From the NCBI GenBank assembly GCA_005882335.1, contig VBAP01000008.1, forward strand, positions 346-64,345: 64,000 nt of DNA, written 5' to 3'. Below are positions 1,877-64,000 of the stretch, piece by piece. The position numbers were made by a program, and so were the translations under genes. How positions within the stretch are numbered: position 1 is the stretch's first letter; every line of letters begins with the position of its first letter. The DNA is from Candidatus Segetimicrobium genomatis (GTDB lineage: Bacteria; Sysuimicrobiota; Sysuimicrobiia; Sysuimicrobiales; Kaftiobacteriaceae). A model generated the notes under the pieces. The model worked only from the letters and a program-made list of their open reading frames with translations. It was not told the origin of the DNA and ran no database searches.

Positions 1877-1884
1877 GGGGCTCT

Positions 1885-2904: not shown

Positions 2905-2922
2905 GCCGCCCCCTTCCCCTTG

Positions 2923-3018
2923 CGCGTCCGTGCGTCCATTGCGTCTATCGCGTCCATTGCGTCTCCGTGTGGCCTTTTACCGCAACGGACGCAAGAAGAC
3001 GCGAGAGACGCGACGACG
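2923..3018. repeat. Intergenic hairpin element (lpd-E1alpha spacer). GCGTCCATTGCGTCT words on the left, complementary GACGC-containing words on the right.
   Basis: Arms at 2923-2967 and 2982-3018. Confidence 0.65.
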
Positions 3019-3024
3019 TGTTTA

Positions 3025-4949: not shown

Positions 4950-6491
4950 CTATTTTCTGACGCGGATACGGACCGTGTGGTATCCCGACGCACCATCCGG
5001 GAGCGTGGGAACCTCCCGGGCCGTCTGCACGACACCAAGTCCGTCCCGGGCGCGGACTTTCAAGGTGTACTCGCCGGGCGCGGTGGGCGTCCAGAGCGCC
5101 GCCCACAACACCCAGGTGAACGGCCCCAGTGGTGGCTTGACCTCTGCCGGCCGCCACGTCCCCCCGCCGTCGGTGCTGTATTCGACGGCCTTGATGCCGC
5201 GATCGCCGCCGTACGCCGCACCACCCAGTCCGATCTCACCGACAGTCCCGGAGCGCGGCGCGACGGTAAACTCCGACATCGTTTTCACGACGGCTTCGTC
5301 GCTCCACCCCGACGCCTCCCAGTATCCGCGGAAGTCGTAGTTGACGACCTCGATCTTGGTAATCCATTTGGGATTCTTCATCCCAAACAACCCGGGGACC
5401 AGCAGGCGAACCGGAAAGCCGTGCTTGGCCGGCAACGGCTCGCCGTTCATCTCGTAGGCGAGGAGCGTGGTGGGATGCATGGCGTCGGCGACGGGAATCG
5501 CCTCGGAGTATCCGTCCGCACACCGGAACGCTACTTTGACCGCTGTGGCGGCGGGGCCTCCAGCGCGCATGAGGACGTCACGTAACTGCACGCCCTTCCA
5601 CTTCGCGTTGCTGATCAGGTCGCCGCCCACCTCGTTGCTGATGCACTCCAGCGTCTGCACCTGTTCGATCGCCGGCATCGCCCGGAGATCCTCGAAGCTG
5701 AACCGCACGGGCTTACTGACCAGGCCGCCGATGTCCAGCGACCATTTCGCCACCTCGACAACGGGATCAAACCCGGGTGGATTCTTGCTGACGACGTAGA
5801 ACCGGTCGTTCGGCGTGATCTCCGCCGGAAGCCCCTGGACGCGCGCGAACAGACTCTGCGCTGCGACTGTGGCGCGGCGGAGTGCGATCTGCAGCCACTG
5901 AGCCGCGGCGCCGCCGGCGGCCGAAGCGATCAGCACGGTCACGGCCCGAGAGAGGAGTTCGCGACGGGTCACTCCCCCGGATGGGGGCGCTCCCGCCGCG
6001 GGCCGGCGCGACAGCGCGACCATCAGCACGGTATAGAACCCGGCAAACAACACGCCGTAGGCGGCCAGCGCCAGCGGCACCGTGTAGGGATTCGCAGCCA
6101 TGCCTTCGGCGGCCAGCCGTTCCGCGAGATAACGTGACGCGGGACCAAACGCCAGAACGGCCAGCAGCCCGGTGACGACGACCCATGCACCCACCAGGAG
6201 CCGCCCGGGCTTCCACCCGGCCCACCGGGCGACCCCGGCTCCGATCAACCCCAACAGCACGACCAGCCCGGCCAGCATGCCCCAAAACGCCGCGGGCTTG
6301 GCGGCGAACTTGAGGCGCACGATCAGGAACGAGAACACCTGCAACGGAATAAGCCGCATCTGCCGTTCCCACAGCGCGAGGGCCACCACAGGGATATGAT
6401 GCGTAAACCAGCCGAAGTACATGGCAATCGCCACGAGGAGTCCGGCCGCCAGGCCGGCCCAAAACCCTGACCGCGTGGAAGACATCGTCAT
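4950..6491 (-). CDS. Sulfite-oxidase-family molybdopterin oxidoreductase with a polytopic N-terminal membrane domain
   Basis: 513 aa. About six hydrophobic helices at the N-terminus. It then has the Mo-binding motif TLECISNEVGGDLISNAKWKGV and a C-terminal dimerisation-like Ig domain. Confidence 0.8.
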   Translation of the reverse strand: MTMSSTRSGFWAGLAAGLLVAIAMYFGWFTHHIPVVALALWERQMRLIPLQVFSFLIVRLKFAAKPAAFWGMLAGLVVLLGLIGAGVARWAGWKPGRLLVGAWVVVTGLLAVLAFGPASRYLAERLAAEGMAANPYTVPLALAAYGVLFAGFYTVLMVALSRRPAAGAPPSGGVTRRELLSRAVTVLIASAAGGAAAQWLQIALRRATVAAQSLFARVQGLPAEITPNDRFYVVSKNPPGFDPVVEVAKWSLDIGGLVSKPVRFSFEDLRAMPAIEQVQTLECISNEVGGDLISNAKWKGVQLRDVLMRAGGPAATAVKVAFRCADGYSEAIPVADAMHPTTLLAYEMNGEPLPAKHGFPVRLLVPGLFGMKNPKWITKIEVVNYDFRGYWEASGWSDEAVVKTMSEFTVAPRSGTVGEIGLGGAAYGGDRGIKAVEYSTDGGGTWRPAEVKPPLGPFTWVLWAALWTPTAPGEYTLKVRARDGLGVVQTAREVPTLPDGASGYHTVRIRVRK

Positions 6492-50863: not shown

Positions 50864-51214
50864 TTACTGAAACTGCTGCAGTGCGTCGTCCAGAGTCCGG
50901 TGCAACGGAACGGTCTGGTCGACCTGTGTCAGCAACAGGACGCGGCGAATCACCGAGCGCTCGGGCACCACCAGGGCCAGCTGCTGCTGACTGACGCGCA
51001 GGCGTTCAGCCAGCTCCAGGATGAGGTGGACGCCGCGGCTGTCCAGATACGTCGTCTGCGACAGATCCACCACCAGGCCTGGCGCGGTGTTGGGGACGAC
51101 CGCGATGAGCTGGGCCCGGCAATCCGCTACATTGGCCAGGTCGATCTCGCCCTCGGGTGCGGCAATCGGCACGCCGCCCCGCTCTATGACCTTGACCATC
51201 GCCGTCACAGTCAT
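50864..51214 (-). CDS. STAS-domain anti-sigma-factor antagonist (SpoIIAA/RsbV-like)
   Basis: 116 aa with LDSRGVHLILEL, which has a phosphorylatable Ser context. Confidence 0.75.
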   Translation of the reverse strand: MTVTAMVKVIERGGVPIAAPEGEIDLANVADCRAQLIAVVPNTAPGLVVDLSQTTYLDSRGVHLILELAERLRVSQQQLALVVPERSVIRRVLLLTQVDQTVPLHRTLDDALQQFQ

Positions 51215-53304
51215 ACCGTCACCTGCCTTCGCGTACGACGCATTTGAACCGTGGTGCCGTCCGGTCGCGGAGTGACCGTCACGTGCCGCATCAGTTCCTC
51301 GATGAGCCGCAGGCCCCGTCCGCGGTTTAATCCGCGCGGCGGCCGCCAGCGCCCCCAGTCGCGTACGATCATCTCAACTTCCTGGTCGGTCATGGTGCCG
51401 CGTACTTCCAGGTCGCCATCCGCCGCCCCGTAGGCGTGCTCGATGACGTTACTGCACGCTTCACAGCACGCCACGAGGATCTCGTAGGCATCCTCGTCGT
51501 TGGTCTGCGCCGCCTCCATCCACCGCCGCAACGAATGCCGCAGCATCGGCAGCGACGCCGGGACGGCCGGCAGGCGGACGTGGAACCGCGCGGGGTCAGG
51601 GATCTCCGCGCGCAGCGCGAGGAGGGCGACGTCATCCCCGCCTGGACGGCCGCGGGTGACCTCGCCCAGCACACGGTCCACCAGCTCATCGAGATCCTCA
51701 GCGGGGGCTGAGGCGACAGCGTGATGCAGCCGGGCCAGGCCGTCGTCAATCGACGCGCCGCGCACCTCGATCAGCCCATCGGTATAGAGGAGGAGCGTGG
51801 TGCCGGGCCACAGTTGCGCCGACTGCTCATGGTAGGATGGCATCCGGAGCGCGCCCAACGGCGGGGCGCCGCCTTCGAGGTAGGAGGCCCGACCATCAGG
51901 CGCCACAGCCAGCGGCGGCGGGTGGCCGGCGTTGGTAAAGCGCACGGTTTGGGTGGCCGGATCGAAGATGAGGTACACCAGCGTGGCCATCTCACCGGGT
52001 TCGATCAGCAGGGCGAGTCGCTGCATCACCTCGGCCGGACTGTATCCTTCCACCGCGTAGGCCCGCAGCGCACTGCGGAGTTCAGCCATCAACGCGGCCA
52101 CACGCACACCCCGTCCGGCGACATCGCCCATCACCAGCCCTACCGTGCCGCGCGGCAGCGGGAAGAGATCGTACCAGTCGCCGCCGACCGCCTCCGGGCT
52201 GGCGGCCAGGTACCGGGCGGCGGCGGCAAGACCAGGGATCAAGGGAAGTCGCTGCGGGAGCAGGCTCCGCTGCAGCGTTTCCGCGATGCGCCGCTCTTGC
52301 TCATAGAGCCTCGCGTTGTCGATGGCCAGCGCCGCCCGGCGGGCCAGTTCTTCAGCCAGGGCCAGGTCGTCCCGCGTGTAATGGCGATTGGACTCGGCGG
52401 TGAGGAACGCGATCACGCCCAGCGTGCGGCCGCGCGCTACCAGCGGCACGATGATCAACGAGGTGGAGCCCAGCGTTCGGGCCACGCTGAGCTCCTCGGT
52501 ATGATCACCCAATCCGCGGATCCACTCCGCGGAAATCTCCGGCACGAGCAATGCCTGGCCGGTGCGCAGCACCGTCGCCGTGGGCTCAGACGCGACGGCG
52601 TTAAATGGATACCGCTCCAAGAGCTTCCGGAGCCGCTGCTCCTTGGAGGGCTCGGCGTGGACAACTTCCACGCGGCGCACCTGACCGTCGGATTCAGCCA
52701 GCGACGTGATGCACATGTCGGCCAGGCGCGGGACGGCCAGCCGTGCGATGCTCCTCAGCGTGGCCTCCGAATCGAGCGACGCGGTGAGGATGCGGCTGGC
52801 GTCGGCCAGGAACTGCAGTTCACGGGTGCGCTCCCGGACGGTTTGCTCCAGGTCGCTGGTGCGCTGCTCCAGCGTGCGCTGCTGTTCATCCAGCTGGCGC
52901 TTGTACTGCCTGGCCTGCATGGCACGGATGAGGGAGGCGACGAAGTACTCACGGTCAATGGGCTTTTGGATGAAGTCGTAGGCGCCGCCGCGCAGCGCCT
53001 GCACGGCAAGATCGTGCTCACCGTGTCCGGTAATCAGCAACGTCGGCGTGTCCGGCCGTAACGCCCTGATCTGCGCCAGCAGCGTCAGGCCATCGGTGCC
53101 GGGCATCTTGATGTCGGTGACGATGGCCTCGTAGTCAACCTCCGCGATGCGCTGCAGGGCCCGCCCCGCGGAATCGCAGGTCTCGATGCTCACCCCGTCC
53201 ATCCGCAACTGCAGCGCCTCCGGGAGCGCCTGCAGCAGCACGGGATCGTCGTCAACGAGAAGAATGAGTTTTGTGGAGACCCGTTCAGGAGCCTCCACAA
53301 TCAT
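51211..53304 (-). CDS. Fusion protein: REC, GAF, PP2C (SpoIIE-type) phosphatase and an RsbW-like anti-sigma kinase (HATPase_c_2)
   Basis: 697 aa with ATGA overlaps on both sides. REC (LLVDDDPVLL...VTDIKMPGTDG). The PP2C region has DVAGRGV. The C-terminal part is CCEACSNVIEHAY. Confidence 0.8.
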   Translation of the reverse strand: MIVEAPERVSTKLILLVDDDPVLLQALPEALQLRMDGVSIETCDSAGRALQRIAEVDYEAIVTDIKMPGTDGLTLLAQIRALRPDTPTLLITGHGEHDLAVQALRGGAYDFIQKPIDREYFVASLIRAMQARQYKRQLDEQQRTLEQRTSDLEQTVRERTRELQFLADASRILTASLDSEATLRSIARLAVPRLADMCITSLAESDGQVRRVEVVHAEPSKEQRLRKLLERYPFNAVASEPTATVLRTGQALLVPEISAEWIRGLGDHTEELSVARTLGSTSLIIVPLVARGRTLGVIAFLTAESNRHYTRDDLALAEELARRAALAIDNARLYEQERRIAETLQRSLLPQRLPLIPGLAAAARYLAASPEAVGGDWYDLFPLPRGTVGLVMGDVAGRGVRVAALMAELRSALRAYAVEGYSPAEVMQRLALLIEPGEMATLVYLIFDPATQTVRFTNAGHPPPLAVAPDGRASYLEGGAPPLGALRMPSYHEQSAQLWPGTTLLLYTDGLIEVRGASIDDGLARLHHAVASAPAEDLDELVDRVLGEVTRGRPGGDDVALLALRAEIPDPARFHVRLPAVPASLPMLRHSLRRWMEAAQTNDEDAYEILVACCEACSNVIEHAYGAADGDLEVRGTMTDQEVEMIVRDWGRWRPPRGLNRGRGLRLIEELMRHVTVTPRPDGTTVQMRRTRRQVTV

Positions 53305-54308
53305 GAGCGTGCCAGCGGTATCTGGATCACGAAGGTGGCACCCTCTCCTGGTGGGCTGATGGCCTCGATGGTGCCCTGATGGTCTTTGATGATTCCGTAC
53401 GCAATGGAGAGGCCCAATCCGGTTCCGTGACCGACGTCTTTGGTCGTGAAGAACGGGTCGAAGATCCGCTGTTCCAGTCCCGGGGGAATACCCGGGCCGG
53501 TGTCGCTGATGGCCATCTCCAGCCGGTCGTCGTTGATCGCGCTGCGGATACGGAGCACCTTTACCGGCGCGTCCTGCAGCGCATCCCGGGCGTTGGCGAG
53601 GATATTCATGAACACTTGCTCCAGCTGAATGGGACTGCCCGTGACCACCGGGTTGGCGGGACTGAGATCGAGCTCCACGGAGATCTCCCGCAGCCGCAAC
53701 TGCTCGCTGATCAGCGACAGCGCCCGCAGCACGACCTCGTTGATGGCCACATCCTCGTAGCCGACCGGGGCGAGGCGGCCGAAGGTACGCAGGTGCGAGA
53801 TGATCTCTGAGGCCTTGCGGACCTGCAGCACTGCCGCGTTGAGATCGGCCAGCACGTGCCCCTTGTCCTCCCGGCCCAACTCGACGAGGTCGATGACGTT
53901 GCCAAGGAATAACCCAATGTTGTTGAGGGGGTTGTTCAGCTCGTGCGCGATGCCGGTCGTGAGTTCACCCAGCGTGGCCAGCTTGCCCGCCTGCACCAGC
54001 TGTTCCTGCTTGTCGCGCAGCTCCCGCTCGCGCCGGGTGATCTCCTCCGTAGTTTTGCGCAGGTCGTCCATGATGTGGATCATCGCCTTCCGCGCATTCT
54101 CCAGCTTGAGGTTGGACTGGTGCTGGTCCTGGAGGATGTGCAGGAGGGCGCGGCGGTGGTCTTCGCGCAGGCGCAGCCGCTCATCGAGCGCCTCCACCTG
54201 CTCGCGCAGCCGCGCGTTCTTCAGGAGCAGCTCGGCTTCGCGCGCCGTCGCCATGGAGCCGGCGACCCGCCCCGCCCCGCCAGGCGACGCTGCCTGTGCG
54301 GTGGACAT
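53301..54308 (-). CDS. Cytoplasmic histidine kinase (coiled-coil, HisKA and HATPase)
   Basis: H-box ELTTGIAHELNNPLNNI, and G-box GLGLSIAYGIIKDHQGTI. Confidence 0.85.
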   Translation of the reverse strand: MSTAQAASPGGAGRVAGSMATAREAELLLKNARLREQVEALDERLRLREDHRRALLHILQDQHQSNLKLENARKAMIHIMDDLRKTTEEITRRERELRDKQEQLVQAGKLATLGELTTGIAHELNNPLNNIGLFLGNVIDLVELGREDKGHVLADLNAAVLQVRKASEIISHLRTFGRLAPVGYEDVAINEVVLRALSLISEQLRLREISVELDLSPANPVVTGSPIQLEQVFMNILANARDALQDAPVKVLRIRSAINDDRLEMAISDTGPGIPPGLEQRIFDPFFTTKDVGHGTGLGLSIAYGIIKDHQGTIEAISPPGEGATFVIQIPLARS

Positions 54309-55657
54309 CAGCGCGGTCCCCGCTCGGTCCGCAGACGCTCCACGTCTGCCCGCAGCTGTTCCAGCTCTTTTTCCAACGCGATCATCTTGAGCTCACGGCC
54401 GACGACGACTTCCTCAAATTTCTCCAACTCTAAGACCTTTTCTTGCAGTTCGGTGCGGGACTTCTCCAGATCGCTGACGACCTGCTCGTAGGCGCGCATG
54501 TCCCGCAGGATGCCGATCGCGCCGATGACTTTCCCATCCAGGTCGCGCAGGTTGCTGGCATTGAGCGTGGTGGGGATGACCTCGCCGCTGGCGCTGCGGG
54601 GGTTCAGGCGCACGTTGCGGGTCACACCCCGCTCCACGACTTCCCGCAGGGCGGCGACAAATTCTTTCGTCTCTTGGGGGGAGATGAACCGCGACAGCGA
54701 CTGCTCGATCAGTTCGTCCGGACGGAACCCCAGCAGCTCCGAACACGCGTCGTTGACCTGGAGGATCTTCCCTTCCAGGTCGGAGACGAACACCGGGTCC
54801 GGGGCGTTCTTGATCAGGCTTTCTGCGTAGGCGCGCGCTTTGTCCAACTCGCGCATGTCTCGCAGGATGCCGATCGCGCCGATCGCCCTCCCCTCTGCAT
54901 CCCGCAGGGCGCTGGCGTTGAGGGTCGTGGGGATGACCTCGCCGGTTGCACTCCGGGGGTTGAGGCGGGCGTCGCGGGTGACCCCCCGCTCCACCACCTC
55001 CCGCAGGGCTACGACGAACTCTTGCGTCTCTTTGGGGGAGATGAACCGCGACAGCGACTGTTCGATCAGTTCGTCCGGACGGAACCCCAGCAGTTCGGAA
55101 CACGCGTCGTTGACCTGGAGGATCTTGCCTTCCAGGTCGGAGACGAACACCGGGTCCGGGGCATTCTTGATCAGGCTTTCTGCGTAGGCGCGCGCTTTGT
55201 CCAACTCGCGCATGTCCCGCAGGATGCCAATCGCGCCGATCACTTTCCCATCCCCGTCCCGCAGCTCCGACGCGTTCAACGTGGTGGGGATGACTTCGCC
55301 CATGGCGCTGCGCGGGCTGAGCACAACGTTGCGCGTCACCCCCCGCTCCACCACCTCACGCAACGCCGCCAGAAATTCTTGCGTTTCATGCGCCGAGATG
55401 AAACGCGACAATGACTGCTCAATAAGTTCAGCTGGCCGGAACCCGAGCAGTTCGTATACCGCATCGTTGGCCTGCAGGATTTTGCCTTCGAGATCGGCGA
55501 CGAACACGGGATCCGGGGCATTGCGGATGATGATGTTCGCGTCTAGTTGGGCGTGGGCCCTGATCACCTCCCTCTCATCTTGCGCATCTTCCACAATCGT
55601 CTCGGGCAAGCCAACAGACATACCTGCCTTGTCGATGACACCTTTGCGTCTGGCCAT
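54308..55657 (-). CDS. Triple-PAS-domain protein with a C-terminal coiled coil. It is made of three near-identical tandem repeats of about 119 aa.
   Basis: NAPDPVFV(A/S)DLEGKILQ(A/V)ND...GAIGILRDMRELDKARAYAESLIK is repeated three times. The DNA repeat period is 357 bp. Confidence 0.8.
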   Translation of the reverse strand: MARRKGVIDKAGMSVGLPETIVEDAQDEREVIRAHAQLDANIIIRNAPDPVFVADLEGKILQANDAVYELLGFRPAELIEQSLSRFISAHETQEFLAALREVVERGVTRNVVLSPRSAMGEVIPTTLNASELRDGDGKVIGAIGILRDMRELDKARAYAESLIKNAPDPVFVSDLEGKILQVNDACSELLGFRPDELIEQSLSRFISPKETQEFVVALREVVERGVTRDARLNPRSATGEVIPTTLNASALRDAEGRAIGAIGILRDMRELDKARAYAESLIKNAPDPVFVSDLEGKILQVNDACSELLGFRPDELIEQSLSRFISPQETKEFVAALREVVERGVTRNVRLNPRSASGEVIPTTLNASNLRDLDGKVIGAIGILRDMRAYEQVVSDLEKSRTELQEKVLELEKFEEVVVGRELKMIALEKELEQLRADVERLRTERGPR

Positions 55658-56102
55658 CGCGGGATCCCCTTTCCCATCGCCGGGGTGTAACCCGGCGTCA
55701 GACCGGCGCCAACATCATTGATTTTTTCCCCCCGGAAGGCTGGGGTTAAACCCCAATTTGGGAGTAAAAAGGCCCGGGCCCGGCTCCCCCATACATGCCG
55801 TGGGGCCGGGCCAGGGTCTATCGTTTGAAATAGAGAAGGTTACAGACCCTACACTGTTTGCTCACGGGATGCTTGGCCGGGTCGACCGGGTCATGCTGGG
55901 TGCGCGCATCTTCCCGCCGTTGAGCGGGAGGCAGTGGGACGCTGAGGACTCCCCAGTTGCCATACGGAACAGGTGTTCATCAGTAATTTAGCCGATGGCA
56001 CCCGGGCCAAGACGTCATATGATCGGAGGAGAAAATTGCGCTGACACACATGAGATCAGGGCCCGCCAAAGTGTTTGTGGTGGGCACATACAGGCGCGGA
56101 GA

Positions 56103-56200
56103 GACCCCTTTCCGAACAGGCAAACCCGCCGCGAGGCGGGGACGCAAAGCCACGGGTCAGGGATCAACCTGACAGCCGGGCTGCCGAAGAAGGGGTAATG
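56103..56200 (+). ncRNA. c-di-GMP-I (GEMM) riboswitch aptamer, copy 1
   Basis: GGCAAACC, a P2 hairpin with a GCGA tetraloop, GGGACGCAAAGCC, and a P3 stem (CGGGTCAGG...CCTGACAGCCGGGCUGCCGA). These match the Vc2-type consensus. P1 is CCCCUU/AAGGGG. Confidence 0.7.
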
Positions 56201-56220: not shown

Positions 56221-56250
56221 TGGCGGTCTCCCGCACAAAGGAGACCGCCA
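56221..56250 (+). promoter_or_regulatory. SD-sequestering hairpin (GGCGGTCTCC / GGAGACCGCC) directly upstream of the start codon. It is conserved in all three copies and is the likely riboswitch expression platform.
   Basis: A 10-bp perfect inverted repeat containing AAGGAG, ending at the ATG. Confidence 0.55.
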
Positions 56251-57995
56251 TGTTTTTGGCAGTTCGCAACGGATTCGCCCGTTCCGTTCTGGTGACATTC
56301 CTCACCTGCATGTTTCTGTTCCAACCACTGGGATCGATTGACGTGCTGGCACCTTCTCCCGTCTTTGCCCAGTCCATTCCGTACCTCTCGCAGTGGGAAA
56401 CCAACATGCGCACCTACGGTTCGCTGCACTGCGTCCTCGGAACGCTGGATCAGGTCTACTACGACGCCGAGCGCGTCTACTATCAGATCGCCGACTACAC
56501 CGGCGATCCCTCCTGGCTGAACTGCAGCCAGCTCGCCGAAACCGTCTACCGCGACCAGTATGTCCTGCCCAACAACGGCAGCGTCCCCGGCCACTGGAAC
56601 TTCACCACCGGCCTGCGCCTCGACGCCCAGCGCACCGCTGACGCCCAGTCCAAGACCGCCGCGGTCCTGCTCTCCCAACATGCCGCCTTCGCCACTGACG
56701 GCACCCCCCTGGCCTGGACCCAGAGCGCCGACTACAGCCGCGAGGTCGCCTACGCCGTCGTCAGCTACATCGACGCCCAGGCCCTGGGCGAGCCCTTGCG
56801 CCAGCGCCGCATCGATCTCGTCACCCAGGCCTACGACCACATGGCCCAGTGGTTCGTCCGCTTCGCCTGGCCCGGGCCCTGGCAGCAGAGCCCCCAGGAG
56901 ACCATCCGCCTGGCCCCGTTCATGGTCGGCCTCACCGCCCACACGCTGATCCGCGACTGGGAACAGACCAAAGACTCCCGCCTCATCCCGACCCTCCGCC
57001 TGGCCGCCGACTGGATGTGGGCCAACGCCTGGATTCCTTCCACCCAGGCCATGTGGTACGAGTTTCCAGATCAAGGTCAGCCCTGCTGTCAGGCCAGCGG
57101 CCCGGCGCCCGACTTGAACCTGCTCATTGCCCCCATCTACGCTTTCCTCTACCGGCAAACCGGCGAGACGAAGTATCGCGACGAAGGCGACGCGATCTTT
57201 GCCGGCGGTGTTGCGCAGGCGTGGCTCGGCGGTGGCAAGCAGTTCGATCAGAACTACTGGTGGAGCTTTGATTACGTGACGTGGCGATCCGCGGTGCCCG
57301 CGGCGGCTGACGCCATCGCTCCTGCCGTGGCCATCACCGCTCCGGCCAGCGGATCTACCGTGTCCGGCGCCAGCGTCACCGTTTCCGCTACCGCCTCCGA
57401 CAACGTCGGAGTCGTCGGTGTGCAGTTCACGCTCGACGGGACCAATCTCGGGACTGAGGATACGACCGCACCGTATGCGATCATCTGGAGTACGACCATG
57501 GTGCCAAATGGCGCTCACACCCTGACCGCCGTGGCGCGCGACGCCGCCGGGAACCGAACCATCTCTGCAGCCGTCGGCGTCACCGTCAGCAACACGGTCG
57601 CCGATACTATGCCACCGGTGATCTCGTCCGTCACCGCGGTGTCGGTTACCTCGTCCGGGGCCATCATCACCTGGACCACAAACGAGCCGGCCGACTCGCA
57701 GGTCGAGTACGGCCGGAACATCAATTACGGGATCGTCACGCCGCTCGACACCCGCCTGGTGACCGTACACTCGGTCATGCTCATCGGCCTGGCGGCGAGG
57801 ACCCCATATCACTACCGCGTAAAGTCCAAGGACACAGCAGGGAACCTCACCAAGTCGGCAGACTTCACGTTCAAGACGACCAGTTCCACCGCCGACGCCA
57901 CCCGGCCGCCGATCGCCCTGACAGCACCGATGCCAGCGATGACAATCATTTCGGGGACCGTCACAGTCTTCGGTAACGGTGGCATTCTTGCCTAG
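56250..57995 (+). CDS. Secreted multidomain protein, paralogue 1: signal peptide, conserved W-rich N-domain of about 330 aa (unknown, possibly carbohydrate-active), a bacterial Ig-like domain and an FN3-like domain
   Basis: 581 aa. The N-domain motifs are shared by all three paralogues (QWETNMRT(Y/F)GS(L/M)HCVLGTLD, WPGPWQQSP, QNYWWSFDYV). The Ig-like domain has SDNVGVVGVQFTLDGTNLG. The FN3-like domain has TWTTNEPADSQVEYG...YHYRVKSKD. Confidence 0.7.
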   Translation: MFLAVRNGFARSVLVTFLTCMFLFQPLGSIDVLAPSPVFAQSIPYLSQWETNMRTYGSLHCVLGTLDQVYYDAERVYYQIADYTGDPSWLNCSQLAETVYRDQYVLPNNGSVPGHWNFTTGLRLDAQRTADAQSKTAAVLLSQHAAFATDGTPLAWTQSADYSREVAYAVVSYIDAQALGEPLRQRRIDLVTQAYDHMAQWFVRFAWPGPWQQSPQETIRLAPFMVGLTAHTLIRDWEQTKDSRLIPTLRLAADWMWANAWIPSTQAMWYEFPDQGQPCCQASGPAPDLNLLIAPIYAFLYRQTGETKYRDEGDAIFAGGVAQAWLGGGKQFDQNYWWSFDYVTWRSAVPAAADAIAPAVAITAPASGSTVSGASVTVSATASDNVGVVGVQFTLDGTNLGTEDTTAPYAIIWSTTMVPNGAHTLTAVARDAAGNRTISAAVGVTVSNTVADTMPPVISSVTAVSVTSSGAIITWTTNEPADSQVEYGRNINYGIVTPLDTRLVTVHSVMLIGLAARTPYHYRVKSKDTAGNLTKSADFTFKTTSSTADATRPPIALTAPMPAMTIISGTVTVFGNGGILA

Positions 57996-58127
57996 GGGCC
58001 TCTGTATCGGTGGATCGGCTCCAGCAGGGTGTCGTCCAGGTCGGAGCACATCTGCACCGGTTAAGAAGGTGGGAGGCAGAGCCTGATGGCGGGAGGGCGT
58101 ATCCTCCTAAAGATACAACATGGTGAT

Positions 58128-58433
58128 TCAATGTTTCATCTCGGGCGGCTCGATGTTCTCAATCAGACCGGTTTCACTCCGCGCCTTGGACCGCTTCTGA
58201 AAGTACGTCAGCCGGGATTGCCCACGTTCCGACAGTCGATAGCGATAGACCCCTTGCTCACCGGCTCGCTCACGCGTCGCCAGCCCCTGCCGGACCAGAC
58301 GCAGCAGCCCCATCGCCGCGACTGAGTAGTGCACTCCGAACGCACGTGCGACACCGTTTGCATCCGCCTCGTCAGTATGAGCGAGGTACGAGAGAAGATC
58401 ATGCTTCTGAAGGCCACGCATGGAGAAGATCAC
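58128..58433 (-). CDS. Small winged-helix DNA-binding protein (101 aa)
   Basis: LLSYLAHTDEADANGVARAFGVHYSVAAMGLLRLVRQGLATRERAGEQGVYRYRLSERG is a wHTH pattern (MarR/PadR-like). The family is uncertain. Confidence 0.4.
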   Translation of the reverse strand: MIFSMRGLQKHDLLSYLAHTDEADANGVARAFGVHYSVAAMGLLRLVRQGLATRERAGEQGVYRYRLSERGQSRLTYFQKRSKARSETGLIENIEPPEMKH

Positions 58434-58619
58434 CCGCTAGTTGTTATATGGGCGAACAGCCGCTTTCTTGACAGGTAGGCTTCTCGTATGGTGCAATTCA
58501 AGGGAACCCCTTAAAAATCGGCTGGAATTCACCTGACTTGAGTCAGGGAGGTTTGGGGAGCGTTTATAGGATTAGTTTGTAGCAGTTTGCACAACCTATA
58601 GAGTCGCGGAACGACCCCT

Positions 58620-58716
58620 TTCCGACAAGGGCAAACCCGTCGCGAGGCGGGGACGCAAAACCACGGGTCAGGAGACGATCCTGATAGCCGGGCTACCGAA
58701 GAAGGGGTAATGTTTT
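58620..58716 (+). ncRNA. c-di-GMP-I (GEMM) riboswitch aptamer, copy 2
   Basis: Same architecture as copy 1, with compensatory or wobble substitutions in P2 (CGUC/GGCG) and P3. Confidence 0.65.
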
Positions 58717-58762
58717 CGGTCCCCCTGGACTGGCGGTCTTCCGCATGAAGGAGACCGCCATA

Positions 58763-61582
58763 ATGTTGTTGGCAGGACGTCGCGTCTTCACCCATCCGCT
58801 CTTCCTCGCGTGTCTCATCGGCGCATTCCTGTTTCAACCCATTGGGGCGGTCTCCATCTTTCTCCCTTCCGCTACCGCGGTGGCCCAGTCCATTGCCATC
58901 CCGCAACTCACCCAGTGGGAAACCAACATGCGCACCTTCGGGTCAATGCACTGCGTTCTCGGCACGCTGGACAACGCCTACTACGACGCCGAGCGCGTCT
59001 ACTACCAGATCGCGAACTACACCGGCGATCCGTCCTGGATGGCCTGCTCCCAGCTGGGCGAGACGGTCTACCGTGACCAGTATGTGCTGCCGAACAACGG
59101 CAACGTTCCGGGGCATTGGAACTTTACTACCGGCCTGCGGACAGACTACGAACACTCGGCTGACGGGACGTCGAAGAACGCCGCGATCTTGCTTTCGCAG
59201 AATGCGGCCTATGCCCGGGACGGCACTCCACTCGCCTGGACCCAGAGTGCGGACACCAGCCGGGAAGTCGCCTACGCCATTCTCAGTTACATCAATACCG
59301 AGGCTCTTGGCGAACCGCCGCGCCAGCGGCGCGTCGACCTCGTCAACCAGGCCTACGATCATATGGCCCAGTGGTTCGTGCGCTTCGCCTGGCCCGGGCC
59401 CTGGCAGCAGAGCCCCCAGGAAACCGGCCGCCTGGCTCCGTTCATGGTCGGGCTCACCGCCCACACGCTGATCCGAGACTGGGAGCAGACCAACGATCCC
59501 CGCCTCATCCCGGCCCTCCGGTTGGCCGCCGACTGGATGTGGGCCAACGCCTGGATCCCCTCGGCTGAGGCGATGTGGTACGAGTTCCCGGATCAAACTC
59601 AGGCCTGCTGTCAGGCCAGCGGCGCCGCCCCTGATTTGAACCTCCTCATCGCCCCGATGTATGCCTTCCTCTACCGGCAGACCGGCGAGACGAAATACCG
59701 TGACGAGGGCGACGCGATCTTCGCCGGCGGTGTTAAGTTTGCGGGGCTCGGTGGCGGCAAGCAGTTCGATCAGAACTACTGGTGGAGCTTCGACTACGTG
59801 AAGTGGCGAGCTGCGGCGCCCCCGGCCGCCGACACATTGCGGCCCACGGTGGCGATCACGGCTCCCAGCAGCGGGGCGACCGTGTCCGGCCCCAGCATCA
59901 CCGTCTCCGCCGTGGCCTCCGATAATGTAGGCGTCGCCAGCATGCAGTTCACGCTGGACGGAACCAATCTCGGCCCGGCGGTCACGGCCCTCCCGTACAC
60001 GCTGACCTGGAACACAACCACCGCGGCCAACGGATCGCACGTGCTCGCGGCGAAGGCTTCCGACGCCGCCGGCAACGTCGGATCCAGCGCGCCGGTCACG
60101 CTCACGGTGGCAAATGCCGACACGACCCCTCCCGCGGTCACGGTAACGACGCCGGGGTCGGGCGCGACGGTCTCGGGCGCGATCACGATCTCTGCATACG
60201 CCTCGGATAACATCGGCGTCGCTGGAGTCCAGTTTCGCATCGACGGGGCCAACTTTGGGACCGAGGTCAGCACGCCACCATTCGCGGTGGCCTGGAACAC
60301 GGCGATCGTGCCCGACGGCCTGCACACGCTGACCGCGGTGGCGCGCGACTCAGCGGGGAACAGGACGACATCGGCCGCCGTCAGCATCACCGTCAACAAC
60401 GGAGTCGTCACTGCACCTCCTGTAATCACTTCGGTCGCGGTCTCCACCATCACCACGTCCGGCGCTCTCATTGCCTGGGTGACGAGCGAGCCGGCCGATT
60501 CACAGGTCGAGTACGGTGCGTCCACGAGCTACGGGAGCGTGACCCCGCTCGATGCCGGCATGGTCACCGCGCATGGTGTCACGCTGACCGGGCTGACCGC
60601 CGGCACCAGCTACTACTACCGGGTCAAATCCAAGAATGCTGCGAGCAATCAAGCCGTCTCCGGGGACTTCACCTTCGCGACCACTCCGGCGGCCACCGGT
60701 CCGGCGCCCCAGGATTCGGGGAGTCCACCCCCGGCTCAAGCGTCCGGCAACGCAGCAGGTGGAACGTCTGGGGGCTCGGGAGTCGCCTCTGGTGGAGCCG
60801 CCGGAGGCGCCGCGTCAATGCCGGGCAGTCTCGCCACTGGCGCGACGGCCAGCCCGATTCCAGGAGCTCTTTCGGTCGAAGGAGCACCAGCGACAGCGCC
60901 GGCGCCACTCGCTGGAAATCTTCCCGTGGGATCGGCACCCGGTCAGGTCCAGAGTGTCGTCTGGAGCAACCTCGTGAACGTGACCGCCAGCGGCAGTTCT
61001 CTGACGAAGATTTCTGGCTGCGACGGCTGTCCCGATGCCGGCGCCGTTTCACAGCAACGGATCACCACCGGTGACGGGTACCTGGAGTTCACGGCCTCCG
61101 AAACGGCCACATGGCGTCGCATCGGCTTCACCAGCGGGAGCCCTGGCACCGGCAGGGGCGAGCTCCGCTTCGCGATCAGCCTCCGGCCCGGCGGCATCGC
61201 CGACGTGCGAGAGGGGGCGATGCTTCGCACCAACGCGACCTACACCCGCGGCGACGTGTTCCGCATCGCGGTCGTCTCCGGCACGGTCCGTTACTTCAAG
61301 AATGGGCGCCTCCTCTATCTCAGCGGCGCGGCCCCGAGCTACCCGCTCGAGGTCACGACGCTGCTGCTGAGCCGCGGGGCTACCGTGACACACGCGATGA
61401 TTTCCGGACGGCTCTCAGTGGGAACGTGGCTGCCTGTCCATCCGCGGCTGCTGGTGGCGTTCCCCCCGAGTCCACCTCTGGCAACTCGGTGCAGCCGCAA
61501 CGACATCTCGGCAGGGGTGCCCGTGCCCTGGGTCAGGGTGTTTGGGCCTAGCGACAGAGTCGAAGGAGCGAAGGTCGTGTAG
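58763..61582 (+). CDS. Secreted multidomain protein, paralogue 2: W-rich N-domain, two Ig-like domains, an FN3-like domain, a Gly/Ala/Ser/Pro-rich linker and a C-terminal beta-jelly-roll-like domain. The start was chosen at MLLAGRRVF by homology.
   Basis: The ORF in the track starts at 58745 (MKETAIM), which lies inside the conserved SD-hairpin. Homology to paralogue 1 favours the second ATG, at 58763. Confidence 0.7.
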   Translation: MLLAGRRVFTHPLFLACLIGAFLFQPIGAVSIFLPSATAVAQSIAIPQLTQWETNMRTFGSMHCVLGTLDNAYYDAERVYYQIANYTGDPSWMACSQLGETVYRDQYVLPNNGNVPGHWNFTTGLRTDYEHSADGTSKNAAILLSQNAAYARDGTPLAWTQSADTSREVAYAILSYINTEALGEPPRQRRVDLVNQAYDHMAQWFVRFAWPGPWQQSPQETGRLAPFMVGLTAHTLIRDWEQTNDPRLIPALRLAADWMWANAWIPSAEAMWYEFPDQTQACCQASGAAPDLNLLIAPMYAFLYRQTGETKYRDEGDAIFAGGVKFAGLGGGKQFDQNYWWSFDYVKWRAAAPPAADTLRPTVAITAPSSGATVSGPSITVSAVASDNVGVASMQFTLDGTNLGPAVTALPYTLTWNTTTAANGSHVLAAKASDAAGNVGSSAPVTLTVANADTTPPAVTVTTPGSGATVSGAITISAYASDNIGVAGVQFRIDGANFGTEVSTPPFAVAWNTAIVPDGLHTLTAVARDSAGNRTTSAAVSITVNNGVVTAPPVITSVAVSTITTSGALIAWVTSEPADSQVEYGASTSYGSVTPLDAGMVTAHGVTLTGLTAGTSYYYRVKSKNAASNQAVSGDFTFATTPAATGPAPQDSGSPPPAQASGNAAGGTSGGSGVASGGAAGGAASMPGSLATGATASPIPGALSVEGAPATAPAPLAGNLPVGSAPGQVQSVVWSNLVNVTASGSSLTKISGCDGCPDAGAVSQQRITTGDGYLEFTASETATWRRIGFTSGSPGTGRGELRFAISLRPGGIADVREGAMLRTNATYTRGDVFRIAVVSGTVRYFKNGRLLYLSGAAPSYPLEVTTLLLSRGATVTHAMISGRLSVGTWLPVHPRLLVAFPPSPPLATRCSRNDISAGVPVPWVRVFGPSDRVEGAKVV

Positions 61583-61606
61583 AGTTCGCGAGACACAAAA
61601 CTTGCG

Positions 61607-61700
61607 GAGAGATCCCTTGCGATAAAGGCAAACCCGTCGTGAGGCGGGGGCGCAAAGCCGCGGGTCAGGAGGTGATCCTGACAGCCGGGCTGCCGATGAA
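61607..61700 (+). ncRNA. c-di-GMP-I (GEMM) riboswitch aptamer, copy 3
   Basis: P1 covaries (UCCCUU/AAGGGA versus CCCCUU/AAGGGG in copies 1 and 2). P2 has a GUGA tetraloop. GGGGGCGCAAAGCC. The P3 stem is conserved. An SD hairpin (CGGTCTCC / GGAGACCG) lies before the ATG at 61778. Confidence 0.65.
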
Positions 61701-61777
61701 GGGACACTGAGACGGTCCTGCTGCGACCGGCGGCCTCCTGGACCCGCGGTCTCCCCGCCAACACAAAGGAGACCGTC

Positions 61778-64000
61778 ATGGTACGTGCCACTCGAGGTTC
61801 GTCCGTCCGCACCCTTCTCAGCGCGTGGCTGATCAGCATGCTGCTGGTCGGATCCACGGCATCCGGGATATTGCTCCCGCGCGTCGCCTTCGCCCAATCC
61901 GTTTCCATTCCGAATCTCGCCCTCTGGGCAACCCACATGGTCACATACGGTCAGGCGAACTGCGCGACGCTGGCCGACCCATCGGTGCCGTTCAGCCAGA
62001 AACTCAACTCCCAGAGCGGCGATGTCTACTACGATGCCGAGCGGGTCTTTTACCAGATCGCCGACTACGCCGGAAATATCGCCTATTGGAACTCCTGCGC
62101 CCAGGTCGCCGAAAGCATCTTTCGGGATCAGTACGTGATCCCCAACAATGGCTCGGTGTATGGCCACTGGAACTTCACGACCGGCCTGCGGATGGACTAC
62201 CAGCGCACCGGTGACACGCAGTCCAAGTACGCCGCGATCCTCCTGTCCCAGAACGCCGCGTTCGCGCGGGACGGAACCCCGCTCGATTACACCACCTCGG
62301 CCGACTACAGCCGCGAGGTGGCCTACGCCATCGTCAGTTACATCAACGCCCAGATTCTCGGCGAGCCGCTGCGCCAGCGGCGCATCGATCTCGTCAACCA
62401 GGCCTACGACCACATGGCGCAGTGGTTCGTGCGCTTCGCCTGGCCCGGCCCCTGGCAGCAAAGCCCCACGGAAACCAGCCGCCTGGCGCCCTTCATGGTC
62501 GGGCTCACCGCGCACGCGCTGATCCGGGACTGGGAAGAAACAAAGGACTCCCGCCTGCTCCCCATCCTGCGATTGGCTGCGGACTGGATGTGGCAGAATG
62601 CCTGGATTCCCTCGGCTTCGTCGATGTGGTACGACAGCGGAAGCATGGGGGCCGGAGCGCCGGACCTCAATCTCCTGGTCGCTCCCATCTACGCGTTTCT
62701 CTACCTGCGGACCGGTGAGACCAAGTACCGCGATGAGGGCGACGCCCTGTTCGCGGGCGGCGTGAGCTTTGCCTACCTCACTGGCGGCAAGCAGTTCGAC
62801 CAGAACTACTGGTGGAGTTTCGATTACGTGACGTGGCGGACCGCCGCGGCAGGACCAGCAGATACCACTCCTCCCACCGTCGCGCTCACGGCTCCGGTCA
62901 GCGGATCCTCGGTCTCCGGCGCCAGCGTCACCGTCTCGGCCAGCGCCTCCGATAACGTCGGCGTTGCCGGGGTCCAGTTCAAGCTCGACGGCGCGAACCT
63001 CGGCGCGGAAGACACCACGGCGCCCTATGCCATCTCTTGGAATACGACCGCCGCCAATGGCGCCCATACCCTTACTGCCGTGGCCCGTGACGCCGCCGGG
63101 AACCGCACCACCTCCGCCCCGGTCAGTGTCACCGTCAACAACCCAGTCGATACCACGCCGCCGCTGATCTCTTCTGTCGCCCTCTCGTCCGTGACGTCGT
63201 CTGGGGCTTCAATCAGCTGGACTACAAACGAACCAAGTGACTCGCAGGTCGAGTATGGTCCGACCGCGAGCTATGGCGGCGTGACTCCGCTCGACGGCGG
63301 CATGGTCACCGCGCATGTGGTTACCCTGAGCGGGCTGGCCCAGGCCGCTTTGTACCACTACCGGGTGAAATCCCGCGATGCGGCGGGCAACCTTGCCGTC
63401 TCCAGCGATTTCACCTTCACGACGCTTGCCCCCGATATCACCAGCGCGCTGCTAGGCTACTGGAAGCTCGATGACGGCAGCGGGGTCACAGCCGCAGATT
63501 CCTCAGGCAATGGGAACACGGGGAGCCTCGTGAACGGGCCCACCTGGACCACCGGCAAAGTCGATGGCGGATTGACCTTGGACGGCGTCAGCCAGTACTA
63601 CCCGCTGACAGTCGGCGCGTGGATCAAGACGTCCTCCACCAGCGGCGTGCGCGGGATCGTCAACAAGTACGTCCCCTTCTCCTCGAACGGCTGGGGGGTG
63701 TTCTTCAGCAACGGCAACCTCTGCGCCTGGTACTTCAAGGACTCGGCCAACTACGTCTATCCCGGCGGCGGCTGCCCATTCAACCTCGCCGGCTACAACG
63801 ACGGCCAGTGGCACCACGTCGCCTTCGTCGTCGACGCCGGCGGCGGCCATCTGTACGTGGACGCCGTGCTCAAGGCGAGCGTGGCCTGGACCGGCACGCC
63901 GGGCGCTCCCTCGACGACCCAGCCTGCTAGTCTCGGCGTCTACCCTGGCGGCGGGGCGGATGTTCCCGGCGGTCCCGGCGCCGGCGAGTACTTCCCCGGC
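61778..64000 (+). CDS. Secreted multidomain protein, paralogue 3: W-rich N-domain, Ig-like domain, FN3-like domain and a C-terminal LamG/ConA-like lectin domain. The 3' end lies beyond the window edge.
   Basis: MVRATRGS...signal...QSVSIPNLALWATHMVTYGQANCA... is homologous to paralogues 1 and 2. The C-terminal part (LLGYWKLDDGSGVTAADSSGNGNTGSLVNGPTWTTGKVDGGLTLDG) is LamG-like. It is not in the ORF track because it runs off the window. Confidence 0.7.
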   Translation, partial: MVRATRGSSVRTLLSAWLISMLLVGSTASGILLPRVAFAQSVSIPNLALWATHMVTYGQANCATLADPSVPFSQKLNSQSGDVYYDAERVFYQIADYAGNIAYWNSCAQVAESIFRDQYVIPNNGSVYGHWNFTTGLRMDYQRTGDTQSKYAAILLSQNAAFARDGTPLDYTTSADYSREVAYAIVSYINAQILGEPLRQRRIDLVNQAYDHMAQWFVRFAWPGPWQQSPTETSRLAPFMVGLTAHALIRDWEETKDSRLLPILRLAADWMWQNAWIPSASSMWYDSGSMGAGAPDLNLLVAPIYAFLYLRTGETKYRDEGDALFAGGVSFAYLTGGKQFDQNYWWSFDYVTWRTAAAGPADTTPPTVALTAPVSGSSVSGASVTVSASASDNVGVAGVQFKLDGANLGAEDTTAPYAISWNTTAANGAHTLTAVARDAAGNRTTSAPVSVTVNNPVDTTPPLISSVALSSVTSSGASISWTTNEPSDSQVEYGPTASYGGVTPLDGGMVTAHVVTLSGLAQAALYHYRVKSRDAAGNLAVSSDFTFTTLAPDITSALLGYWKLDDGSGVTAADSSGNGNTGSLVNGPTWTTGKVDGGLTLDGVSQYYPLTVGAWIKTSSTSGVRGIVNKYVPFSSNGWGVFFSNGNLCAWYFKDSANYVYPGGGCPFNLAGYNDGQWHHVAFVVDAGGGHLYVDAVLKASVAWTGTPGAPSTTQPASLGVYPGGGADVPGGPGAGEYFPG

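Follow-up and report, generated by a model that had tools for sequence, protein, structure and literature searches.

Toward the 3′ end of a 64-kb stretch of DNA from Candidatus Segetimicrobium genomatis (contig VBAP01000008.1 of assembly GCA_005882335.1; the whole stretch of 64,000 nucleotides is referred to here as the window, and positions are given in its coordinates) lie three tandem, paralogous open reading frames (ORFs) on the + strand. Their products share an N-terminal domain of approximately 310 residues, designated here the N-domain, which is 82% identical between paralogues 1 and 2 and 74% identical between paralogues 1 and 3. A search of the 64-kb window with the family profile returned no fourth copy, leaving those of paralogues 1, 2 and 3. 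The N-domain is followed in each protein by immunoglobulin (Ig)-like and fibronectin type III (FN3)-like modules, and each gene is headed by a leader with a putative cyclic di-GMP (c-di-GMP) riboswitch.

Paralogue 1 (56250..57995, + strand) encodes 581 residues, arranged as a signal peptide (approximately residues 1-41, with a cleavage-like VFA/QS), the N-domain (56373..57299, approximately residues 42-350), a Big_7 Ig-like domain (57321..57530; PF17957, E = 1.4e-19), an FN3-like domain of the Pur_ac_phosph_N/fn3 type (57624..57878; PF16656 at 28.1 bits against a cut-off of 30, PF00041 at 20 bits) and a short tail. The C-terminus encoded by 57912-57995 (PPIALTAPMPAMTIISGTVTVFGNGG) is reminiscent of the opening strand of a Big_7 domain but goes no further, and looks like an old truncation of a longer ancestor. 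Ig-domain remnants are found downstream in none of the frames; a frameshifted longer gene was therefore rejected, and paralogue 1 is simply short.

Paralogue 2 (58763..61582, + strand, within an ORF open from 58745) encodes 939 residues from the ATG at 58763, in the order signal peptide, N-domain (58892..59818; 537 bits against the family profile by hmmsearch), two Big_7 domains, FN3-like domain, linker, concanavalin A (ConA)-like jelly roll and unconserved tail. The true start is almost certainly ATG 58763 rather than 58745, because it aligns with the start of paralogue 1, lies 9 nucleotides after a Shine-Dalgarno (SD) sequence, and is where the gene is called on a public contig with the same locus (ENA ERZ28573530, scaffold_1645, 35 kb). 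ATG 58745 is situated upstream of the SD, within the leader hairpin, and an exact protein look-up gave a match for paralogue 2 from ATG 58763 and none for paralogue 1 or for paralogue 2 from 58745. The linker comprises 87 residues rich in Gly, Ala, Pro and Ser. The 160 residues that follow it (60944..61423) have no Pfam match; modelled with AlphaFold2 (AF2) from 36 homologues, of 37 found, they form an all-beta sandwich with a predicted local distance difference test score (pLDDT) of 95.4, and Foldseek matched the model to 300 structures at E <= 1e-3, those of SPRY, galectin, GH16 and PL7 reaching E ~1e-5. The last ~50 residues (61424-61582), after this ConA-like domain, have no counterpart in homologues. 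The DNA beneath them aligns with the region upstream of the second riboswitch, and the stop codon falls 36 nucleotides before the next aptamer. Owing to this alignment, the tail may be read-through into the duplicated promoter or leader of paralogue 3.

Paralogue 3 (61778..64000, + strand) runs past the end of the window and reaches at least 1132 residues on ERZ28573530 scaffold_1645. Within the window it comprises a signal peptide, the N-domain (approximately 61910-62848), a Pfam Big_7 domain (62873-63079), an FN3-like domain near the Pfam threshold (63173-63424) and, from 63599, a LamG_3 (Laminin_G_3) domain, matched at E = 2.6e-13 here and, with the longer contig, at 1.3e-25. On the public contig these are followed by four more Big_7 domains, up to the contig end. 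In total, the window holds one, two and one Big_7 domains in paralogues 1, 2 and 3, respectively (E = 1e-19 to 1e-31), along with FN3-like matches that are close to the cut-off (28-37 bits against 30) and consistent in all three copies. The Ig-like and FN3-like domains, the linker and jelly roll of paralogue 2 and the LamG domain of paralogue 3 had all been proposed in an initial annotation made from the sequence by eye, and these assignments are borne out by the Pfam matches and the AF2 model.

The same annotation had described the N-domain as an unassigned domain rich in Trp and Tyr, and so it remains. Trp accounts for 4.2-5.1% and Tyr for 5.8-7.1% of its residues, against 0.9-2.6% Trp in the rest of the proteins, and no significant match was obtained from Pfam, NCBIfam or PDB sequences with either a single sequence or the family profile. 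Three sequence blocks quoted in the annotation are present and invariant across the three paralogues. In the alignment of the wider family, WPGPWQQSP proves to be lineage-specific and lies in a variable loop, while DW.WxNAW and GGKQF(N/D)QNYxWSFDY are kept. No description of the family was found in the literature, and its named homologues are "hypothetical" in every source, bar two JGI names that reflect the Ig domain and one UniRef label discussed below.

A Pfam scan of 68 individual members gave sub-threshold matches to two glycoside hydrolase (GH) families. GH127 (PF07944) was matched in 18 of the 68, with a best E of 2.3e-4 and 19.4 bits on individual examination (cut-off 24.9), over 75-90 of the 376 profile positions, and GH88 (PF07470) in five, with a best score of 23.2 bits (cut-off 26.6). 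Both echoes are confined to the last ~90 residues of the N-domain and are out of register. On these grounds membership in GH127 or GH88 was rejected, and the matches are read as a generic hairpin motif. GH127 enzymes possess a Cys/Glu zinc site with a Cys nucleophile. The N-domain contains neither this Cys/Zn site nor the DD pair of GH76 or the His pair of the N-acylglucosamine 2-epimerase (AGE) family.

Conservation was assessed in 171 sequences, non-redundant at 70% identity and numbered as in paralogue 1. D72 is conserved in all of them, and R101, D102, S134, R164, E165, E177, H197, D242, R244, D288, N290, D314, K330, Q334 and R346, together with many Tyr and Trp residues, in at least 90%. 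Nearly invariant acidic residues include D72, D102, E165, D242, D288 and D314. Several of the conserved residues map to helix N-termini in the AF2 model, a placement typical for active-site residues of the (alpha/alpha)6 fold. Only two Cys residues are conserved, C61 and C92; nearly invariant in the family, they are probably joined by a disulfide, which would suit an exported protein.

The AF2 model of the paralogue 1 N-domain, built from a 68-sequence alignment, is of high confidence (pLDDT 94.5, predicted template modelling score 0.92) and all-alpha, with ~12 long helices, as expected of a barrel of six alpha/alpha hairpins. All 50 matches listed in a Foldseek search of the PDB are (alpha/alpha)6 proteins, and all except linalool dehydratase-isomerase are carbohydrate-active enzymes, namely AGE or cellobiose epimerases, GH88 and GH76. 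Template modelling (TM) scores for the AGE/epimerase and GH88 structures are mostly 0.5-0.66 (0.55-0.66 for the best of them; best AGE 0.66, best GH88 0.63), and those for GH76 and linalool dehydratase 0.34-0.45; the best E-values are weak, at ~2e-3, with sequence identities of 8-13%. A search of viral folds (BFVD) with the N-domain gave no match under E = 0.1. The initial annotation had guessed at an (alpha/alpha)-toroid from composition, and the predicted structure, with its six-hairpin carbohydrate-active neighbours among the matches listed, argues for that guess; the AlphaFold and Foldseek check brought out no non-enzymatic fold, nor was there a clear Pfam match to an unrelated family.

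Like the known six-hairpin enzymes (AGE/cellobiose 2-epimerase family 3gt5, 6f04 and 3wkg; GH88 unsaturated glucuronyl hydrolase 3wiw and 3ani; GH76 alpha-1,6-mannanase 4d4b), the N-domain is thus predicted to be a 12-helix alpha/alpha barrel, is aromatic-rich with conserved acidic residues, and bears the weak GH88/GH127 hairpin-motif echoes. It differs in being ~310 residues long, against 370-410 in the matched AGE and GH88 structures, and in belonging to a secreted, modular family. No significant sequence-profile match to any six-hairpin member family was found, only the sub-threshold PF07944 and PF07470 matches. Because the relationship is one of AF2 and Foldseek similarity with sequence matches below threshold, the N-domain appears to be six-hairpin by fold yet lies outside the curated families.

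The family itself is large. It comprises 670 proteins in a collection clustered at 90% identity, and among 50% cluster representatives there are 1604 matches at E <= 1e-3, of which 563 are at E <= 1e-30. Members occur in Acidobacteriota, Methylomirabilota/Rokubacteria, Nitrospirota, Planctomycetota, Bdellovibrionota, Elusimicrobia, Actinobacteria, Gemmatimonadota, Saccharibacteria, Peribacteria, Firestonebacteria and Methylococcaceae, and in one metagenome-assembled genome (MAG) of Aenigmarchaeota. Cultured carriers belong to the Planctomycetota and include Singulisphaera acidiphila DSM 18658, Singulisphaera sp. GP187 and Lacipirellula limnantheis. Members at 37-42% identity were seen in the Aenigmarchaeota MAG (locus L070), in Saccharibacteria (L054, L067) and in Peribacteraceae (L066); these members in archaeal DPANN and candidate phyla radiation lineages could reflect horizontal transfer or binning contamination.

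Among 237 near-full-length copies, the domain stands alone in 80, is N-terminal in 48, C-terminal in 92 and internal in 17. Stand-alone members are ~340 residues long, with a signal peptide as their sole addition. Four proteins (P0121, P0122, P0125 and P0127) carry two full barrel copies in one chain, separated in P0127 by PKD repeats. The partner domains seen are PKD, Big, He_PIG, cadherin-like, fn3, LamG, DUF4082 and PG_binding_1, all of them extracellular beta-sandwich modules, and no second catalytic domain was seen among them. A hydrophobic, signal-like start is present in 75 of the 83 members with an N-terminal copy of the domain. The Singulisphaera homologue WP_015245931.1 bears a Tat-like (twin-arginine translocation) RRAFLGG motif; a Tat signal was rejected for the window copies, in which an RR motif occurs in paralogue 2 only and is unconserved.

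Many homologues are encoded in exopolysaccharide loci. Stand-alone members were found within a Wzx/Wzy locus beside genes for family 2 and family 4 glycosyltransferases (GT2, GT4), AsnB and PEP-CTERM proteins. In the two cultured Singulisphaera genomes, the barrel gene is flanked by GT4 genes and a GT2 gene, the start of which overlaps the barrel stop codon, with an AsnB-type amidotransferase or a FemAB-like acetyltransferase encoded upstream. The best matches of these neighbours come from the XrtA/PEP-CTERM system, namely its glycosyltransferases stp1 and stp2 and its amidotransferase, at scores below the equivalog cut-offs. In S. acidiphila DSM 18658 (locus L029; NC_019892.1, ~3.066 Mb), the stop codon of the WP_015245931.1 gene overlaps the start of a membrane-type GT2 gene. 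A census of neighbours by phmmer, covering GT2, GT4, AsnB, Wzx and Wzy in 80 genome loci, found at least one such gene in 30; where the full 4-kb flanks were present, 20 of 39 loci had at least one and 14 of 39 had two or more. Neither the 64-kb window nor two 17-kb loci of unrelated context yielded any in the same search. In L. limnantheis (locus L035), the gene upstream of the barrel (1116-3026) matches the C-terminal beta-sandwich of GH30 and has dockerin-like repeats at its end, which adds a glycan-active neighbour outside a biosynthetic cluster. The suggestion in the initial annotation that the proteins are matrix- or polysaccharide-acting exoproteins is, as far as computation goes, supported by the family-wide signal peptides and by homologues in the exopolysaccharide loci of several phyla.

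Each of the three leaders contains a match to the c-di-GMP-I riboswitch class (Rfam RF01051/RF03167, clan CL00126), in keeping with the c-di-GMP control that had been proposed for these genes. The putative aptamers lie on the gene strand (+) at 56110..56189 (RF03167, 72.6 bits, E = 2.9e-15), 58621..58701 (70.8 bits) and 61618..61698 (73.0 bits), all at 71-73 bits when rounded and above the Rfam gathering score of 59 bits for RF03167, and their 3′ ends fall 60-80 nucleotides ahead of the start codon. The GGC variant RF03167 is the best-scoring model for all three. At the position where the RF03167 consensus has G (GACGCGAAG), the three window aptamers and those of homologous loci L001, L004 and L006 have A (GACGCAAAG), which we take to be the canonical c-di-GMP-I binding-site state, corresponding to A47 of the Vc2 aptamer. 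For the riboswitches of homologous loci, the best-scoring model is RF03167 in some cases and the canonical RF01051 in others, and the variant label may stem from likeness within a lineage and not from a change in ligand specificity. Because of this A at the variant position and the mixture of models among homologous loci, the putative ligand is taken as c-di-GMP.

Immediately 5′ of each aptamer is a short element (GCGGAGAGACCCC and variants) that is kept in all three leaders and could base-pair either with the 3′ extension of aptamer stem P1 or with an anti-SD arm further downstream. This candidate anti-sequestor lies at 56096..56108 in copy 1 (GCGGAGAGACCCC; duplex of -22.4 kcal/mol, z = -3.2), 58606..58618 in copy 2 (GCGGAACGACCCC; z = -3.3) and 61604..61616 in copy 3 (GCGGAGAGATCCC; z = -3.3), all on the + strand. 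Across the window copies and homologous leaders, the predicted duplexes between this element and the anti-SD arm range from -16 to -23 kcal/mol, with z-scores relative to shuffled flanks of -3.2 to -3.3 in the window copies and -1.5 to -2.0 in the others. On the 3′ side of each window aptamer, a hairpin that would bury the SD is predicted, and the same design recurs in L001, L006 and L030, making six leaders. In copy 1 (56221..56252, +), the SD is enclosed as far as the ATG by pairing of GGCGGTCTCC with GGAGACCGCC, and the minimum-free-energy fold (-85 kcal/mol, z = -5) includes this expression-platform hairpin. The corresponding hairpin of copy 2 (58731..58765, +) ends at the probable start ATG 58763. 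In copy 3, where folding of the leader places the anti-SD arm, SD and start codon at 61745..61780 (+), the 5′ flank element pairs with the anti-SD arm in the minimum-free-energy fold and the SD is free; the SD-free fold lies 3.9 kcal/mol above the minimum in copy 2 and 8.2 kcal/mol above it in copy 1. Nucleotide identity is 83-85% between copies 1 and 2 and 70-72% between these and copy 3, for leader and N-domain alike, and because the two have diverged in parallel the riboswitch would have belonged to the duplicated unit.

The pairing of barrel and riboswitch is not peculiar to the window. A c-di-GMP-I-class riboswitch lies upstream of the barrel on the same strand in six of the 80 genome loci (L004, L006, L030, L044, L053 and L069) and also in L001, and no other riboswitch class was found in any of the 80. 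These cases span Methylomirabilota/Rokubacteria, Acidobacteriota, Actinobacteria and one Methylococcaceae MAG. In L044, L053 and L069, the riboswitch precedes an ORF for accessory domains (an InlB-B-repeat, or FN3-PKD-LamG), which the barrel ORF overlaps in L044 and L069; in L053 the barrel ORF begins within ~20 nucleotides of the end of the accessory ORF. Since the riboswitches of these three loci precede accessory ORFs, the association appears to track the barrel and not one architecture. In L030, from Candidatus Rokuibacteriota AR40, two c-di-GMP-I riboswitches (3117-3208 and 6014-6105) lie ~2.9 kb apart on one strand, the first ahead of a protein with a barrel, three Big_7 domains and LamG, and the second at the contig end. 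With two riboswitches in that locus, tandem arrays of riboswitch-gated paralogues would not be unique to the window. As in other systems of the c-di-GMP-I (GEMM-I) class that control surface or secreted proteins, the window has the aptamer in the 5′ leader of a gene for an extracellular protein. It differs in having three tandem paralogues with one riboswitch each, and in a platform that is predicted to be translational, with an SD hairpin and a three-way competition for pairing.

Together, these features would make each of the three genes an independent unit under its own c-di-GMP-I-class riboswitch leader, through which c-di-GMP would set production by controlling translation. Ligand binding would stabilise the extended P1 helix of the aptamer and lock the 5′ flank element within it, such that the anti-SD arm pairs with the SD; with ligand absent, the 5′ flank would pair with the anti-SD arm and free the SD. 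From these modelled folds we infer what they suggest, a translational OFF switch in which c-di-GMP represses. Under such a switch the enzymes would be made at low c-di-GMP, which would fit a role in matrix trimming or dispersal. Each coding region encodes a Sec-type signal peptide, a compact predicted 12-helix barrel and Ig/FN3-like spacers, to which copies 2 and 3 add a ConA-like module of the lectin type. The barrel would be the catalytic module, a glycoside hydrolase or polysaccharide lyase of a previously unclassified secreted family, with an exopolysaccharide or matrix polymer as its substrate, and the beta-sandwich modules would tether or target the enzyme. Some lineages would encode the barrel inside a biosynthetic locus, and others, including that of the window, as c-di-GMP-gated multi-module exoproteins. 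On balance, then, we consider it somewhat probable that the barrel defines a new family of secreted glycan-cleaving or glycan-processing enzymes that act on exopolysaccharide and are under translational c-di-GMP control; catalysis, substrate, the choice between hydrolase and lyase and the sign of regulation are what we infer in this proposal, and gene structures, domain boundaries, predicted fold, riboswitch matches, hairpins and the size, distribution and genomic contexts of the family are what the analysis shows.

Such a role has precedent, as glycoside hydrolases and lyases encoded within exopolysaccharide loci are well known (PMC4928890, PMC9894940). Like BcsZ (GH8), AlgL (PL5), PslG, PelA and PgaB, many homologues are secreted and encoded beside GT2, GT4, Wzx or Wzy genes, and the role proposed for the barrel, trimming or clearing of polymer, is in principle the same (PMC4928890, PMC9894940). 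The N-domain differs from these enzymes in being unrelated to them in sequence (AlgL was tested directly), and the window copies differ further in lying outside an exopolysaccharide cluster and in carrying Ig, FN3 and lectin modules. Several points weigh against the proposal. The barrel shows no sequence-level membership in any CAZy-linked Pfam family, and the structural comparison by Foldseek gives weak E-values (~2e-3), with epimerases and isomerases, not hydrolases, as the nearest neighbours of the modelled fold among the matches listed. The window and most of the riboswitch-bearing homologues lack exopolysaccharide biosynthesis genes, as do the surroundings of about half of the homologue loci, and because the window has no such genes its copies are linked to exopolysaccharide by homology only. 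The direction of the switch is read solely from thermodynamic folding, in which the SD-free fold of copy 1 is predicted to be 8 kcal/mol less stable. A more specific version of the proposal is possible though doubtful: that the barrel founds a new CAZy-level family specific to the XrtA/PEP-CTERM-type, Wzx/Wzy and GT2-synthase exopolysaccharides of soil and freshwater phyla, with the Rokubacteria-like tandem paralogues serving as c-di-GMP-repressed dispersal enzymes that would be produced as c-di-GMP drops and would dissolve the matrix.

The chief alternative is that the barrel is non-catalytic, a glycan-binding or scaffolding module of adhesin-like character, and that the genes encode structural biofilm components under c-di-GMP. 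The partner domains named above as Big, PKD, cadherin-like, He_PIG and LamG are all of the adhesin type, no catalytic signature could be assigned to the barrel, and adhesins and surface proteins are among the known targets of c-di-GMP riboswitches, for example the surface-anchor proteins downstream of tandem c-di-GMP-II riboswitches (PMC9481103). Yet 80 of the 237 copies are stand-alone barrels, some of them in exopolysaccharide operons, the usual setting for processing enzymes; the near-invariance of acidic, basic and His residues across phyla suggests chemistry beyond binding; and the structural neighbours among the Foldseek matches listed are all enzymes. A purely structural role is therefore held to be unlikely. 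An exported AGE-type epimerase or isomerase, or another enzyme that modifies polymer without cleaving it, would account for the best Foldseek matches, which are N-acylglucosamine 2-epimerase, cellobiose 2-epimerase and mannose isomerase (TM up to 0.66). Enzymes of the AGE family are, however, cytoplasmic, act on free sugars and use a pair of catalytic His residues, whereas the N-domain family is a secreted one in which the barrel is joined to lectin and Ig modules, and has H197 as its only nearly invariant His. Pfam gave no AGE match even at E <= 1, and the N-domain is ~60-80 residues shorter than the matched AGE enzymes, making this an improbable identity for the barrel.

Far less probable still is an alginate lyase of the PL5 type, an identity raised by the UniRef name "Alginate lyase" for UniRef100_L0DBM6, which is WP_015245931.1 of S. 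acidiphila. PL5 enzymes are, after all, secreted or periplasmic alpha/alpha barrels of ~330 residues that are encoded in exopolysaccharide operons. NCBI names the same protein a hypothetical protein, and PF05426 is matched by none of the 68 members at E <= 1. The family profile finds no PDB sequence of AlgL or A1-III at E <= 10, and hhalign gives a probability of 2.6% against AlgL, the test sequence having been verified against PDB 7SA8 and 4OZV, and of 0.2% when the family profile is compared with a profile of 120 AlgL homologues. PL5 structures are absent from the top 50 Foldseek matches. The hallmark of PL5 is an NNHSYW motif with a catalytic set of His, Tyr and Arg, but the family consensus lacks it, its nearest counterpart, FNQNYxW, sharing the Y and W only and being unaligned to the motif. 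On these Pfam, PDB-profile, hhalign, Foldseek and motif tests, the PL5 membership implied by the UniRef label was rejected. A non-carbohydrate substrate, with the barrel acting as a terpenoid/linalool-dehydratase-like or LanC-like enzyme, is likewise scarcely credible: linalool dehydratase-isomerase is among the Foldseek matches (TM 0.40-0.45), but below AGE and GH88 in TM score, and secretion, lectin-type partners and exopolysaccharide gene context all indicate glycans.

Two further features of the window adjoin the three genes. Between paralogues 1 and 2, an ORF of 101 residues on the - strand (58128-58433), represented by a gene of 97 residues on the public contig, has a weak MarR_2/PaaX-like winged-helix match (E = 1.2e-4, under the cut-off), from which its product could be a local regulator. 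Divergent from paralogue 1 is a signalling operon (50864-55657, - strand) that encodes a protein with three near-identical PAS repeats (54308-55657), a HisKA/HATPase kinase (53301-54308), a response regulator-GAF-SpoIIE(PP2C)-HATPase_c_2 protein (51211-53304) and a STAS anti-sigma antagonist (50864-51214). By its domain content, this operon is a predicted partner-switching cascade. No GGDEF or EAL domain was found in its genes.

The fold and the regulatory class described here are both known; what is new is the large unclassified family, together with its recurring linkage to exopolysaccharide loci and c-di-GMP riboswitches, neither of which has been described. The finding is no surprise in principle, and offers a concrete and testable lead on the turnover of matrix polysaccharides in poorly studied phyla. 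The cultured carriers S. acidiphila DSM 18658 and Lacipirellula limnantheis make the hypothesis directly testable, and enzymes that dissolve matrix have practical use against biofilms. If the barrel is catalytic, a sizeable family of enzymes is missing from Pfam and NCBIfam and lacks a solved structure. Its repeated placement in exopolysaccharide loci opens a way into the matrix polysaccharides of dominant soil phyla, which have hardly been studied, and its recurring association with c-di-GMP-I riboswitches would supply the c-di-GMP signalling of uncultured lineages with a defined output.

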